Shown piece by piece: positions 15,033 to 19,673 of a stretch of 64,000 bases of DNA (position 1 is its first letter; each line of letters opens with the position of its first letter). The translations under genes were made by a program, and so were the position numbers. The DNA lies in contig OY764159.1 of assembly GCA_963668175.1 (NCBI GenBank), positions 4,192,001-4,256,000 of the forward strand, written 5' to 3'. This DNA is from Syntrophales bacterium. Its GTDB lineage: Bacteria > Desulfobacterota > Syntrophia > Syntrophales > PHBD01. The notes below the pieces were generated by a model, which saw only the letters and a list, made by a program, of their open reading frames with translations, was not told the DNA's origin and did no database searches.

Positions 15033-16811
15033 TTAGGAGATATGGTAACTTTTTTCCTGAAACAGCCTGAAGCAGGCATCAACAACAGCGGGGTCGTATG
15101 CCATTCCGCGCTTCTGGCTGATTTCGTCGAGTGCTTTGTCCAAACCGAGAGTGGGACGATAAGGACGATGGGAAGACATGGCCTCTACGACATCGGCCAA
15201 GGCAAGGACCTTGGCTTCCAGCAGAATGTCGTCTCCTTTCAGGCCCAGAGGATACCCCGACCCATCTATTCTTTCATGGTGCTGGTATATGATCCGGGCT
15301 ATGGGCCAGGGGAATTCCATGTCTTTCAGGATGTCATAGCCGATCGGCGAATGGGCTTTGATAAGGTCATATTCGATATCCGAGAGCTTCGTCGGTTTAC
15401 TCAATATTTCCGCAGGGATGGATATCTTGCCTATGTCATGGATCAGTGCCGCCATGGCAATACTGTCGATAATGATAACTTCGAGACCCATTTCCTCGGC
15501 AATGGCCCGGGCCAGATTGGCAACCCGCTGTTGATGGCCCGATGTGTAGGGGTCCCTTATTTCGACCGTCATGGATAAGGTCTGAATAATGGACCGCATG
15601 GCCTTCTTCAGGCTCTCGACAACCTTTCGCTCCTGCTCTTCCGCCTTCTTTCGCTTGGTAATTTCCAGAACGGTACCTTCATAACAGGCCAGGTTGTTGT
15701 CTTGATCGCATACGGCTCTTACGGTGAGGGACCCCCACATGACGCTGCGATCCCTCTTATAGAACTGCGCCTCATAGCCCACAACCGATTGCCGATCCCT
15801 CAGCATTCGGTTGATCCGCCGTCTGTCGCTGGAAGTAACATAAAGCTGACGGGAAATATCGGATATATCGGCAATCATATCCTGGGGCGAATCGTAGCCC
15901 ATGATTCTGGCTAAAGACGGATTGACATCGAGAAAACGTTTTTCCTTCGAGCTTTGAAATATGCCTTCTGTCGCATTTTCAAAAATATTCCGGTATTTTT
16001 TTTCGCTTTCGGAAAGGGCGATCTCCATCTTGTGGCGGCTGGTCACGTCCCTGATAATGCCCCGAAATCCCAGGGGACGCCCCGACTCGTCGGCCATGAG
16101 GGATGCGGACAGTTCGCCGTATACCGGTGCGGATTCCTTGTTCCTGAATTCGCACCGCAAAAGACGGATCGGTTCTGCGGCGTCAACCGCATTTTTAAAG
16201 GCAGATTGCAGCTTACTGTGGTTCGCCTCGTCGAGAAGAGAACTGAAGCCCATCCCGGCGAGTTCGCTTCGCGAGTAGCCCAAAAACCTGCCAAGCGAAC
16301 GATTAAAAAACGTCAGACTCCCCGCAAGGTCCGATTCGAAATAGGCGTCATCGATGCTTTCGAGGATCCGCCTGTATTTTTCCTCCGATTGATACAGCGC
16401 TTCAGCAACCTGCCTTCGTTCGCGGCGCATCATCGCTTCATTCAGTTCTCTTTTAACGGCGGGCACAAGACGGGAAAGATTCGCCTTCATGACATAGTCA
16501 TGCGCCCCGGCCTTCATGGCATTGACGGCCTTGTCTTCACCCACCGCCCCCGAAACGATGATGAAAGGCATATCCAGCCCCATGTCCTTATAGAGCGTCA
16601 ACACCTCAATGACGTCGATCTCCGGCAATCTATAATCGCATATGACGACATCCCATGGCCCGTTTTCAAAGGCATCTTTCAACGTCTCACGCGTGTCGAC
16701 GCGCTGGGCGGTCGTATTGAACCCCCCCCGTTCCAGCTCCATTAAAACGGATAAAAAATCCACCTCCGACGATTCTATGATCAGAACATGAATGTCTCTT
16801 TTCACAACCAT
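15033..16811 (-). CDS. REC-PAS-PAS-HD-GYP c-di-GMP phosphodiesterase
   Basis: Receiver domain (VVICDY, GAHDYVMK), two PAS domains, RDPYTSGHQ, HDIGK, HHERIDGSGYP. Confidence 0.92.
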   Translation of the reverse strand: MVVKRDIHVLIIESSEVDFLSVLMELERGGFNTTAQRVDTRETLKDAFENGPWDVVICDYRLPEIDVIEVLTLYKDMGLDMPFIIVSGAVGEDKAVNAMKAGAHDYVMKANLSRLVPAVKRELNEAMMRRERRQVAEALYQSEEKYRRILESIDDAYFESDLAGSLTFFNRSLGRFLGYSRSELAGMGFSSLLDEANHSKLQSAFKNAVDAAEPIRLLRCEFRNKESAPVYGELSASLMADESGRPLGFRGIIRDVTSRHKMEIALSESEKKYRNIFENATEGIFQSSKEKRFLDVNPSLARIMGYDSPQDMIADISDISRQLYVTSSDRRRINRMLRDRQSVVGYEAQFYKRDRSVMWGSLTVRAVCDQDNNLACYEGTVLEITKRKKAEEQERKVVESLKKAMRSIIQTLSMTVEIRDPYTSGHQQRVANLARAIAEEMGLEVIIIDSIAMAALIHDIGKISIPAEILSKPTKLSDIEYDLIKAHSPIGYDILKDMEFPWPIARIIYQHHERIDGSGYPLGLKGDDILLEAKVLALADVVEAMSSHRPYRPTLGLDKALDEISQKRGMAYDPAVVDACFRLFQEKSYHIS

Positions 16812-17064
16812 CCTTACCTTAACCCGTCAATCGCGATTTCATAAATGCAGACCACAGCGCGAACCGCTGTCGATATTTGGACAACAGAATCCGGCCCTCA
16901 TAAAAGCGGGAAATCTTCTGAAACCGTGTAAGTCTTTACCATACACTTCCCGATTCATCAAGCGTTCTTAAGGCCTGCGAGGAAGGAAAGCGTTCGCATT
17001 TCAGCCGTAAGGATGGTTTTCCTTTTGAAGATATACGGAAGATTGATTTTGTGAGGAAGGCAAT

Positions 17065-17108
17065 AAAAAAGGTGGATGGAAAAGGAGGGAGCCTGAAAAC
17101 CATCCACC
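17065..17108 (-). terminator. Intrinsic terminator formed by the last anti-SD hairpin
   Basis: 9-bp stem 17071-17079/17100-17108, followed on the minus strand by TTTTTT (17065-17070). Confidence 0.7.
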
Positions 17109-17267
17109 GATATAAAAACTGAGAGTCTCTTTTCTAACGCCTCTCAGACAATCCGTCTTAGGGGGTCGGTGGATGGAAAGGAGGGTGCTAAAACCATCCA
17201 CCGAATTTACTATTGGTCCAAATTCTACGACATCGACAGACAATCTTTGAGGGATTAAACCCTTCGC
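17065..17267 (-). ncRNA. Putative sigma-54-dependent small RNA with two anti-SD-loop hairpins
   Basis: Bounded by a -24/-12 promoter and a hairpin+U6; two identical stems GGUGGAUGG/CCAUCCACC with CCCUCCUUU in the loops; ends approximate. Confidence 0.72.
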
Positions 17268-17275
17268 CATTTAAG

Positions 17276-17292
17276 TTGCAATATCGATGCCA
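17276..17292 (-). promoter_or_regulatory. Sigma-54 (-24/-12) promoter
   Basis: Minus strand TGGCATCGATATTGCAA: GG-N10-GC, closely matching TGGCAC-N5-TTGCW. Confidence 0.85.
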
Positions 17293-17433
17293 TGGTTACG
17301 ACATGACTCCCTAAATCGCTCAACGGAATTTCAATAGCTGAATATTACGTACATTATTTTATGCAGCGACATAGACGGTTTATCTTTAATAAACTGTGAT
17401 TATTAAAGAATCAAAAAAAAGATTGGCAATAAT

Positions 17434-17526
17434 GTGCGATATTCGCACGGACATAGAGGCAAATCCATACAGGCAGAGGGAGAGAAACTTTGTGCAGATA
17501 ATGCACGGTATGTGCGGTATTCGCAC
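17434..17526. promoter_or_regulatory. Three palindromic enhancer-like sites GTGCR-N5-YGCAC
   Basis: GTGCGATATTCGCAC (17434-17448), GTGCAGATAATGCAC (17492-17506), GTGCGGTATTCGCAC (17512-17526). Confidence 0.75.
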
Positions 17527-17537
17527 GCACCGTTGGT

Positions 17538-19673
17538 TCACATGACATTTATGTATTTGTTCACTTTTTTTTGTTCCCGGATAAGCTTGTATCGGGAAAT
17601 ACCCAGCCTCCGGGCAGCCTCCGTCTTGTTGCCCTTGCTCATGGCCAGGGCTTCCGACAGGAGCTTGCCTTTCAAGTCTGTGGCAATCTTTTCAGTCACA
17701 GTCCCGTAATCCATACCTTCCTCGATCAGCGGCGGCAACAGGTTTTCAATCGGCATTTCCGGTTCCCTTTTGCCGGTGACCGCTTTAATCTCAGCCGGCA
17801 GGTGATCTCTGGTAATCACATCACCCAGATTTTGCAGGATCATAACCCTTTCGATGATATTTTTAAGTTCGCGGACATTGCCGGGCCAGGCATACGATTT
17901 AATCGCACTCTCCGCGTCCTTACTGAATACCTTGACCCTTTTACTGAATTTCTTGTTAAACTCCTCGACGAAATGTTGTGCCAGAAGGATAATGTCGTCC
18001 GGTCTTTCCCTCAAAGGGGGTATATGGATCGGAACAACGCTGATTCTATAGAACAGATCCTCCCGAAAAGAACCGTCGGCAACCATCTTATTCAGATCCT
18101 TATTGGTTGAAAAGACGAACCTCACGTCGACGGGGATATTGTCGATGCCGCCAAGTCTCCGTATGTATCCGTCTTCAAGCATCCGCAGAAATTTGGCCTG
18201 CAATTGGATGCTCATGTCGCCTATCTCGTCGAGCAGCATCGTTCCACCGTTGGCGTGTTCCAACAGACCGATTTTTCTCTTCCTCGCATCGGTAAAGGCA
18301 CCCGCCTCATAACCAAACAGCTCGCTTTCGAGCAACGTCCCCGGAATGGCGGCGCAATTGACGTCGACAAAGGGCTTGGTGCTGCGATTGCCCTGCCTGT
18401 GGATAGCCCTGGCGATCAGTTCCTTGCCCGTACCGCTTTCTCCCCGGATGAGCAGATTGGTATTATGGCTTGCCACTTCCCCTATGAGATGAAATATGGC
18501 CACCATCTCTTTCGATTTTCCCCGGATGTTATGGAAACCGAGGAGCCTGTCTTCCCGTTCTTTGAGTTTCTCCACTTCCGTTTTCAAAGACCGGGCTTCC
18601 TGGAAAAGAACGGAGTGCATAATGGAATTGTCGTAAGACGCTGCGGCATTCTTCACCAGGACATCCAGAAGATTGATCTGGTCCTGAGTATAAATACCTT
18701 TCTTCTTGGCCAGATAGAGCGCACCTCTGTATCGATCCTTCATATTGAGGGGTATAACGATTTCACGGGGGTAAACATCGAAAAGAGGAGGGGCATGAAC
18801 ATTGGTTCCCGGCTGTTGAACGATGATGATATTGGAGTCCATTGACTTGCCGATGATCCCCTTTAATATTTTCTCTTCGAATGCGTTCTTGTCGTCTTTG
18901 ATGATCTTCCTGCCGTCGTTTACCAGGCATTGCTTCTTGTGCAGATCCCAGAAGAAGACGAGCACCTCATCCGCGCGCGAGATATCGAGAGCGCTCTTGA
19001 CCAGCACATCTCTGATCCCGTTATCCAGAACATAGCTGCCGTTCATTGTGGATACGGCCTCCTGTAAGACCATAAGCTGCCTGATCTTCTCGGCATTCGT
19101 CTCAAAGAGCCTGGCATTGTGGATGATAATGCTGATCTGGCTTGCAAATGTCAGAAACAGATTGATTTCTTCCGGGAAAAATTTCGTCTCTTCTTCGCTC
19201 CAGGCTGCGAGGGACCCGATGACATCTTCGCCGATTTTGAGCGGTGCGCAAAAGATAGACCCTCTGCTATATATTTTCGTCAGCATCCGATCCGTTTCCG
19301 TGATCCGGTTATCGGTCGCCGCATTTTCTATGGCGATGTGCTGACCCGATTTCGCCACCTTGGTCGCCAGACAATCGTGATCGAGAATATTGACAAAGAT
19401 CGTGAAGGCCCTTTTTTCCTCCTCGGGCGTGTAATTCTTGACTACCTTGGTTTCCAGATACTGCCTCGATTCGTCAAACAGACGGATGATGCCTCGATCG
19501 AACCCGATGCTGTCCACAACCTCGTCAAGGATCTTGGCCAGGATGTCGTCGAGGCGGGAGGGGGCGGTCAAAAGCGTACTGATGCGAAAAATGCTCTTCA
19601 GGAGCTTGTCCTTATCCAACCGGGGTTTTTGTGATTTTAACATCGTTCCGTTATACTCCGCTCTCTTGGGCAT
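17538..19673 (-). CDS. GAF-domain sigma-54-dependent transcriptional activator (bEBP)
   Basis: GAF domain plus a second GAF-like region; GESGTGKE, ESELFG, GAFTDA, LLDEIG, WPGNVRELKN; C-terminal Fis-type HTH. Confidence 0.93.
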   Translation of the reverse strand: MPKRAEYNGTMLKSQKPRLDKDKLLKSIFRISTLLTAPSRLDDILAKILDEVVDSIGFDRGIIRLFDESRQYLETKVVKNYTPEEEKRAFTIFVNILDHDCLATKVAKSGQHIAIENAATDNRITETDRMLTKIYSRGSIFCAPLKIGEDVIGSLAAWSEEETKFFPEEINLFLTFASQISIIIHNARLFETNAEKIRQLMVLQEAVSTMNGSYVLDNGIRDVLVKSALDISRADEVLVFFWDLHKKQCLVNDGRKIIKDDKNAFEEKILKGIIGKSMDSNIIIVQQPGTNVHAPPLFDVYPREIVIPLNMKDRYRGALYLAKKKGIYTQDQINLLDVLVKNAAASYDNSIMHSVLFQEARSLKTEVEKLKEREDRLLGFHNIRGKSKEMVAIFHLIGEVASHNTNLLIRGESGTGKELIARAIHRQGNRSTKPFVDVNCAAIPGTLLESELFGYEAGAFTDARKRKIGLLEHANGGTMLLDEIGDMSIQLQAKFLRMLEDGYIRRLGGIDNIPVDVRFVFSTNKDLNKMVADGSFREDLFYRISVVPIHIPPLRERPDDIILLAQHFVEEFNKKFSKRVKVFSKDAESAIKSYAWPGNVRELKNIIERVMILQNLGDVITRDHLPAEIKAVTGKREPEMPIENLLPPLIEEGMDYGTVTEKIATDLKGKLLSEALAMSKGNKTEAARRLGISRYKLIREQKKVNKYINVM

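Follow-up and report, generated by a model that had tools for sequence, protein, structure and literature searches.

A conserved RNA of the Syntrophales with anti-Shine-Dalgarno loops behind a predicted sigma-54 promoter

In a 64,000-nt stretch of a Syntrophales bacterium genome (contig OY764159.1, positions 4,192,001 to 4,256,000; hereafter, the window), we found what is very probably a real and so far undescribed RNA gene. It would encode a small RNA (sRNA) of ~200 nt on the minus strand, from roughly 17266 to 17065, with its transcription and both of its ends predicted from the sequence. We are highly confident that the gene is real, that its RNA is structured and conserved, and that a dedicated sigma-54 activator controls it. 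With moderate confidence, we lean toward an RNA that blocks translation in trans by base pairing, masking ribosome-binding sites independently of Hfq. What is new is the family and the combination of features rather than the principle, as enhancer-dependent sRNAs and sRNAs with anti-Shine-Dalgarno (anti-SD) hairpins have already been described.

A three-helix RNA conserved within one order

By reading the minus strand directly, we verified the -24/-12 promoter, the hairpins SL1, SL2, and SL3, and the U6 tract that follows SL3 (Table 1), all of which a preliminary description of this DNA had placed at these positions. The promoter segment TGGCATCGATATTGCAA occupies 17292-17276. The loops of SL1 and SL3 both display the motif CCCUCCUUU, and the 9-mer GAUUGUCUG found in the leader is present a second time at 17153-17145. 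When the RNA was folded as a single sequence, SL1 and SL3 formed (-63.6 kcal/mol, z -2.76).

Table 1. Features of the sRNA locus and of one candidate target
Feature	Coordinates	Strand	Details
One-component sigma-54 activator gene, 713 aa	17538..19679	-	GAF sensor, AAA+ sigma-54 interaction domain, HTH_8
Distal enhancer (upstream activating sequence, UAS), palindrome GTGCGGTATTCGCAC	17512..17526	.	Predicted; ~234 nt upstream of promoter
Proximal enhancer (UAS), palindrome GTGCGATATTCGCAC	17434..17448	.	Predicted; ~156 nt upstream of promoter
Sigma-54 promoter TGGCATCGATATTGCA	17277..17292	-	GG at 17291-17290, GC at 17279-17278; predicted +1 near 17266
Leader, ~62 nt	17205..17266	-	Holds GAUUGUCUG (17245-17237)
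SL1	17204-17166	-	11-bp stem UCGGUGGAUGG/CCAUCCACCGA; 17-nt loop UUUUAGCACCCUCCUUU with anti-SD motif CCCUCCUUU
C-rich linker ACCCCCU	17159..17165	-	Predicted single stranded; nearly invariant in the 38-member alignment
SL2 (middle hairpin)	17119..17147	-	CUGAGAG/CUCUCAG, variable loop; conserved UUUAUAUA-like spacer after it
SL3	17108-17071	-	9-bp stem GGUGGAUGG/CCAUCCACC; 20-nt loop UUUUCAGGCUCCCUCCUUUU holding CCCUCCUUUU
U6 tract (UUUUUU) after SL3	17070-17065	-	Direct read
Lipoprotein-type MsrB gene, 205 aa	G000:C1:3739030-3739644	-	Outside the window; start region AAAAGGAGGGAGCAUGAAAA

An independent repeat search found identical hairpin arms 94 to 97 nt apart and the two copies of the 9-mer 92 nt apart. 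Aligned to each other, the two ~93-nt units are identical in 57 of 99 columns, with resemblance also outside the hairpins. Therefore, the leader has the look of a decayed SL2 segment, and it is plausible that a unit was duplicated in tandem in the window's lineage. Among relatives, only the nearest of those without an open reading frame (ORF) ahead of SL1 (locus L004) conserves the leader. Thus, the earlier proposal that the RNA consists of two tandem units fits the window's lineage; it does not describe the family as a whole, whose conserved unit is the three-helix module SL1-SL2-SL3.

We found the element widely in relatives. A BLAST search with a 246-nt stretch against 60 relatives showed that many families of this order have the hairpin unit, and an exact-pattern scan with one genome per species returned at least 119 stretches. 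The 80 matches listed belong to Syntrophales, Syntrophaceae, or Syntrophus or to bins left unclassified as "Deltaproteobacteria," Thermodesulfobacteriota, or Proteobacteria, and we therefore take the order to be Syntrophales. Cultured species are among the carriers, including Syntrophus buswellii and S. aciditrophicus. We aligned 38 distinct full elements chosen by a regular expression that demands both anti-SD hairpins, a choice that biases the arms of SL1 and SL3 but not SL2. The RNAalifold consensus of these elements has three helices with 27 pairs, and 12 of the pairs show compensatory double changes. Such changes occur in all three stems: in 4 of 10 pairs of helix 1 (SL1), where 99.5% of cells are paired, and in 6 of 7 pairs of SL2, the unbiased helix. 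Overall, 98.8% of cells are paired, versus 93.5% in shuffles (none of 500 reached the observed value) and 36 to 57% when partners were slid. Sequence and length differ among members in the loop flanks and in the SL2 loop, but hardly any change is seen in the loop core CCCUCCUUU or the linker. Relatives thus show the stem covariation and the loop conservation that the preliminary description had called for.

A covariance model, R1, was then built from the relatives' elements. In its own genome it has a single match, at 17063-17206 of the window (131 bits, E 1.6e-31). Of the 151 genomes sampled from the order, 123 have a match, with one to five copies apiece; they represent 22 of 24 families, and the two families without a match are f12 (0 of 3 genomes) and f16 (0 of 10). 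In a sample of the phylum, its own genome and 3 of 4 other genomes of the same order matched, and the sole match outside the order, among 146 genomes, is weak (26 bits, E 5.8e-4). The class sample comprised genomes of the same order only. The element is restricted to one order. No Rfam 15 family matched anywhere in the window at the gathering score. At E of 10 or below, the region 16800-17560 gave chance-level rows only (Atu_L1 on the opposite strand, 17.6 bits, and two miRNA models). These results agree with the preliminary description, which did not recognize the RNA as a described family. In addition, none of the best-ranked results of our literature searches dealt with sRNAs from Syntrophus, Smithella, or the Syntrophales.

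We also asked whether the region could be without function: an inverted repeat that arose by chance, what is left of a mobile repeat, or a piece of the 89-codon ATG frame (17001-17270) that spans it. A chance origin can be ruled out by the rare promoter consensus, the unique hairpin pattern, and the single covariance-model match. The pattern GGTGGATGG-N8-30-CCATCCACC is confined to the two hairpins in the whole 4.57-Mb genome; together with the single R1 match in this genome, this also removes the concern, voiced earlier, that the hairpins are a dispersed repeat of the repetitive extragenic palindromic type. We rejected the 89-aa frame as coding, as it has no Pfam match and as relatives carry loop indels of 1 to 4 nt and compensatory stem changes across it. 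With a single copy in the genome and conservation in 22 of 24 families, a region without function is extremely unlikely.

A predicted sigma-54 promoter, a predicted enhancer pair, and a neighboring activator

Exact matches to the sigma-54 consensus TGGCAY-N5-TTGCW number 22 in the genome, which also has an rpoN gene, and the site described here is the only one of them in the window. A scan of 16700-17600 gave no sigma-70-like promoter. For the comparison with relatives, GG and GC were held fixed and at most one mismatch was allowed. Within 300 nt upstream, 52 of 122 distinct elements have such a site in the sense orientation, versus 0 of 122 in the antisense orientation. With 700 nt of upstream sequence, a site is present at 28 of 34 loci, or 27 of 31 once three duplicate loci are removed, versus 1 of 31 for the antisense strand. 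The distances between promoter and SL1 fall into two classes, 45 to 130 nt (90 nt in the window) and 285 to 390 nt. The exact match, the conservation on the sense strand, and the presence of rpoN thus place the site in the -24/-12 class.

Upstream of the promoter lie two predicted enhancers (Table 1). The palindrome GTGCG-N5-CGCAC, with at most one mismatch, recurs in 22 of 27 promoter-bearing related loci, typically near -156 and -244. At these loci we counted 47 sites in the 9,450 bp upstream of promoters versus none in the remaining 74,632 bp. The genome has only 6 exact copies of the palindrome (~4.4 expected by chance); the two sites at 17434 and 17512 are the only pair within 150 nt in the 4.57 Mb, even when one mismatch is allowed. 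In two genomes with three copies of the RNA gene each, all six copies have their own promoter and enhancer, and both elements are kept where the RNA and activator genes are unlinked (family f21; L022 and L023).

The 713-aa protein encoded next to the RNA matches the Pfam families Sigma54_activat (1.8e-66), AAA_lid_14, GAF_2, and HTH_8. No NCBIfam equivalog model reached its cutoff, and the NifA, NorR, and FhlA models match only the AAA+ and helix-turn-helix (HTH) part. We examined the frame upstream of the RNA at 24 of 27 related loci, having dropped three near-duplicates. Fourteen of these frames are sigma-54 activators by Pfam, and each of the 14 fragments has the window's activator as its best match in this genome (62 to 76% identity, with the next of ~26 paralogues at 41 to 48%). 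At three further loci, an antisense shadow frame of the same activator gene had stood in for it. Full-length orthologues are present in 122 of 151 genomes of the order. By manual comparison of the lists, 118 of these genomes have both the RNA and the activator, 5 have only the RNA, 4 have only the activator, and 24 have neither, counts that come from related genomes and so are not an independent statistical test.

The predicted UAS pair and the orthologous GAF-AAA+-HTH gene point to an enhancer-dependent transcription unit. The 713-aa protein is presumably the dedicated activator of the RNA gene, and the RNA appears to be its only direct target in this genome. The sigma-54 dependence suggested in the preliminary description accordingly gains strong comparative support from the conserved promoter, the conserved palindromes, and the orthologous neighboring activator. 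As a separate observation, tblastn finds ~26 sigma-54 activator paralogues in this genome, versus only 22 exact TGGCAY-N5-TTGCW sites; this large set of activators is found in a genome without detected Hfq or CsrA.

Anti-Shine-Dalgarno loops and possible modes of action

The core of the loops, CCCUCCUUU, is complementary to AAAGGAGGG and similar to the 3' end of this genome's 16S rRNA (...CACCUCCUU / ...GGAUCACCUCCUU). AAAGGAGGG stands just ahead of the start codon in 29 genes. The seed loops are conserved and predicted to be unpaired, and candidate start regions were found by complementarity. Neither Hfq nor CsrA was found in the complete genome. In the mechanism that we favor, the GAF-domain activator would bind the two palindromic enhancers, and sigma-54 RNA polymerase would then transcribe the ~200-nt RNA. 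The RNA would fold into its three helices, with SL1 and the terminator hairpin SL3 presenting CCCUCCUUU in large loops. These loops would pair in trans with (A)AAGGAGGG ribosome-binding sites without Hfq, SL3 may additionally reach the start codon, and the outcome would be a block of translation initiation on a set of mRNAs. The base-pairing mode, the identity of the targets, and repression as the outcome are sequence-based predictions, as is the processing of the RNA that the preliminary description had considered possible.

SL3 is presumed to serve both as a second seed and, together with the U6 tract, as an intrinsic terminator. Its stem has 7 GC pairs, and a tract of U5 to U8 is kept in 38 of 38 aligned members. 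There is also a weak hint of expression. In a root metatranscriptome, a 173-nt contig aligns over 172 letters to 17253-17084 with 12 substitutions and 6 gaps, so it comes from a relative, whose copy forms a stand-alone short assembly in an RNA library. Two other runs have long contigs over the whole region, which are DNA-like and uninformative on RNA, and a third covers parts of it.

Which mRNAs might be targets? The 20-nt SL3 loop is complementary at 19 of 20 positions to the region from the SD sequence through AUG-AAAA of the lipoprotein MsrB gene, the one mismatch being at the A of AUG. For the SL3 loop, none of the 8,774 crude start regions scored better (-29.0 kcal/mol versus a mean of -13.3, standard deviation 3.3). 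Standalone exported MsrB is limited to distant relatives, where the start regions differ, and the nearest relatives have fused forms only. A fused MsrA/B-like frame is also present in this genome (C1:4354230). In all four genomes of the sister genus (L204-L207), the sole other site within two mismatches of the loop complement is likewise an SD-AUG region. This site, AAAAGGAGGGAACAUGAAAG, is the start region of an NDP-forming acyl-CoA synthetase-like gene and matches the SL3 loop at 18 of 20 positions. In three of the four genomes, the gene shares a contig with the sRNA gene, at a distance of ~64 to 66 kb. We rejected it as a common target, since the start-region match is missing in this genome's orthologue and genome G002 has no site.

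Several observations weigh against trans-acting translational repression as we propose it. The best-matching gene differs by genus (MsrB versus acyl-CoA synthetase), and orthologues lose the match. The search pattern is itself start-region-like, which makes the finding that the best match is a start region partly circular, and the MsrB match has a BLAST E of only 0.15 over the whole 246-nt query. Because every strong ribosome-binding site can pair with an anti-SD loop, complementarity says little about which mRNAs are the targets. The SL3 loop is unusually large for a terminator; a terminator scan of 16700-17600 made no call because its loop limit is 8 nt and the SL3 loop exceeds this. The sole contig from an RNA library belongs to a relative, has a depth of 3.2, and possibly reflects DNA carry-over, and the comparison with sequencing runs used only assembled contigs from four runs, which are silent on 5' and 3' ends, strand, and level. 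Finally, the stems are conserved beyond the need for pairing (5 of 10 and 8 of 10 pairs invariant), which suits recognition by a protein, and in most relatives the RNA trails an ORF-like segment in the same predicted sigma-54 transcript. Given the genus-specific genes and the start-like pattern, we take these matches as a sign of an SL3 loop antisense to an idealized start region and not as proof of particular targets.

This complementarity could be taken further. The RNA might be a general "anti-start-site" governor, in which, in this genome without detected Hfq, one RNA and the 3' end of the 16S rRNA would contend for the strongest ribosome-binding sites. The SL3 loop would then be antisense to AAAAGGAGGG-N3-(A)UG-AAAA, and SL1 would be a second anti-SD copy. 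A metabolite- or redox-sensing GAF activator would retune a class of highly expressed genes instead of a few targets, and in most relatives a purine-rich, SD-like 5' domain of the transcript, or a small protein, would buffer the loops. We regard this as unlikely.

The conservation of the stem sequences leaves room for a protein partner. In one such reading, the RNA is a protein sponge whose hairpins titrate a binder of the GGUGGAUGG/CCAUCCACC stem and the C/U-rich loop, comparable to RsmY/Z with CsrA or CrcZ with Hfq/Crc. This would explain stem sequences that are nearly invariant over 22 families and a number of hairpin modules that varies from one to tandem arrays, as at 27459-27791 of contig C11 in genome G009, where three R1 matches overlap. 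However, we identified no known protein that binds CCUCC loops, CsrA and Hfq were not found, and the invariant loop core exactly complements the ribosome-binding site, as in base-pairing RNAs already described (PMC8034643). We regard the sponge as unlikely too, and base pairing in trans remains the reading that we prefer.

The ORF-like segment of the relatives raises another possibility. In most relatives, a frame of 60 to 87 codons lies between the promoter and SL1 and ends 5 to 70 nt before SL1 (e.g., L005:1248-1466; L007-L031); at these loci the sigma-54 site is 285 to 390 nt upstream. The frame is purine-rich and its product would be hydrophilic; conservation is limited to the initial M and two FF motifs (FF(L/V)S). 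The small upstream frames have no Pfam match except one chance-level MtrC row. Among close relatives, substitutions are distributed about evenly over the three codon positions and nonsynonymous changes exceed synonymous ones, so the coding status of the frame is doubtful. With no Pfam match, usually no SD sequence, and no codon-position bias, the segment may be either a small disordered protein or a noncoding 5' domain.

Since the RNA stands behind this segment, it could be primarily a 3' element of the longer transcript: a stabilizer, terminator, processing site, or regulator that acts mainly in cis, with the window's copy a pared-down remnant of that ancestral form. A parallel is CcsR1-4, located in the 3' untranslated region of the small ccaF1 gene (PMC8034643). 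However, the RNA is fully conserved, with its own promoter 45 to 130 nt upstream, in lineages that have no frame (the window, L004, L006, L019, L024, and L156). When this genome was searched with a profile of the frame, no credible match came up; the best (E 0.09) lies inside an unrelated 337-aa frame and was rejected as a copy. Moreover, the frame mostly lacks a ribosome-binding site on which the loops could act, and its coding status is doubtful in any case. These findings make a mainly cis-acting element quite unlikely.

Could the RNA instead serve the gene downstream? In the window, a gene for a REC-PAS-HD-GYP protein (15033-16811) is co-oriented with the RNA and starts 254 nt past the U-tract. 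The RNA might be its leader or regulated terminator; read-through at SL3 would bring the gene under sigma-54 control, and the hairpins would govern its translation in cis. A 12-nt segment at 17018-17007 (AACCAUCCUUAC) is perfectly complementary to the SD sequence and AUG of this gene (16817-16806), and the helix appears in both the minimum-free-energy and the centroid folds. The 11-mer at 17021-17011 (GAAAACCAUCC) overlaps this segment and is also complementary, in both SL1 and SL3, to the 5' arm and the beginning of the loop; therefore, the sRNA might open the SD/AUG helix and so activate the gene. However, the intergenic fold is no better than shuffles (z -0.49), and a GC-rich stem and U-tract end nearly all members of the family. 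In addition, the HD-GYP neighbor is not conserved: the genes downstream in relatives include a convergent ychF, cytochrome bd subunit II, H+-pyrophosphatase, and others. A leader of the HD-GYP gene is thus very unlikely. A convergent ychF (encoding a ribosome-associated GTPase/ATPase) directly follows the RNA at six loci of different families (L011, L017, L019, L025, L029, and L031), and this adjacency may be the ancestral neighborhood.

Relation to known RNAs and family variants

We compared the RNA with four known systems. The Qrr RNAs of the Vibrionaceae, with their regulator LuxO, share a sigma-54 promoter and one dedicated enhancer-binding protein whose gene often lies beside the sRNA gene. 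In both systems there are one to five paralogous sRNA genes per genome, each with its own promoter and enhancer, and the activator appears to act mainly through the sRNA. Qrr RNAs need Hfq to act, which was not found in the present genome, and the present RNA has no match to the Rfam Qrr family at E of 10 or below. LuxO is a response regulator, whereas the present activator is a one-component GAF protein without a receiver domain. The present RNA's seeds are also different, being anti-SD loops in conserved hairpins.

The cuckoo/CcsR RNAs (NfeR, RF02344) consist of two to four adjacent hairpins with the same anti-SD motif in each loop (PMC4615179, PMC8034643). They share with the present RNA the adjacent hairpins, the common anti-SD loop motif, the variable copy number, the frequent placement behind a small ORF in one transcript, and induction through an alternative sigma factor (PMC4615179, PMC8034643). 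However, the cuckoo motif is CCUCCUCCC and the present one CCCUCCUUU. Cuckoo stems vary, while the present stems are strongly conserved and the unit includes a middle helix that is not a seed. Cuckoo promoters are of the RpoHI/HII type rather than sigma-54 with an enhancer, and the upstream ORF-like segment of the present RNA has no match to DUF1127 or to any other Pfam family. Among ~2,690 genomes, cuckoo RNAs were reported only in alphaproteobacteria (PMC4615179). Thus, the present RNA is cuckoo-like in its proposed action and, without an RF02344 match, not a member of that family.

Two further systems link noncoding RNAs (ncRNAs) with sigma-54. In the sigma-54 regulome of Desulfovibrio vulgaris, four ncRNAs stand beside enhancer-binding proteins, e.g., the "ncRNA downstream of DVU0653" (Kazakov 2015, PMC4641369). 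The gene arrangement is the same, and this organism also belongs to the former Deltaproteobacteria (PMC4641369). The order and the RNA are different, judging from the single weak R1 match among 146 genomes outside the order, a comparison of the sequences that is indirect only. NrsZ of Pseudomonas aeruginosa, induced by NtrC and RpoN, has three similar stem-loop modules that are processed apart and is likewise an RpoN-linked RNA of repeated stem-loop modules (PMC4253122). However, its loop motif is ACAGGCAG, it activates rhlA rather than masking an SD sequence, and the present RNA matches no Rfam family. Although it would work much like these systems, the present RNA differs from all four in motif, stems, middle helix, promoter type, or taxon and is a member of none of them.

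The Syntrophales are key degraders of fatty acids and aromatic acids in methanogenic communities. The predicted circuit is unusually complete: it has a sensor-activator, an enhancer pair found nowhere else in the genome, a sigma-54 promoter, and a structured RNA whose anti-ribosome-site loops are invariant. The element recurs in 22 of the 24 sampled families; it therefore offers an entry point to posttranscriptional control in these organisms. It could also be a model for Hfq-independent masking of ribosome-binding sites, and the covariance model could annotate hundreds of genomes and metagenome bins.

Two variants of the element were seen in relatives. Overlapping R1 matches ~90 to 100 nt apart mark tandem module arrays in G009 (C11 27459-27791), G226, G263, G283, G324, G327, G334, and G342. 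At 10 loci (L032, L033, L045, L048, L084, L088, L100, L124, L126, and L128), SL1 occurs without SL2 and SL3. The order there is a sigma-54 site ~103 nt upstream, a conserved leader hairpin (GGAAAU...AUUUCC), and SL1, and within ~25 to 40 nt of SL1 there follows a start codon whose SD-like sequence is AAAGGA or CAGGAAG. This variant looks like a use of the same anti-SD hairpin as a cis-acting 5' leader.

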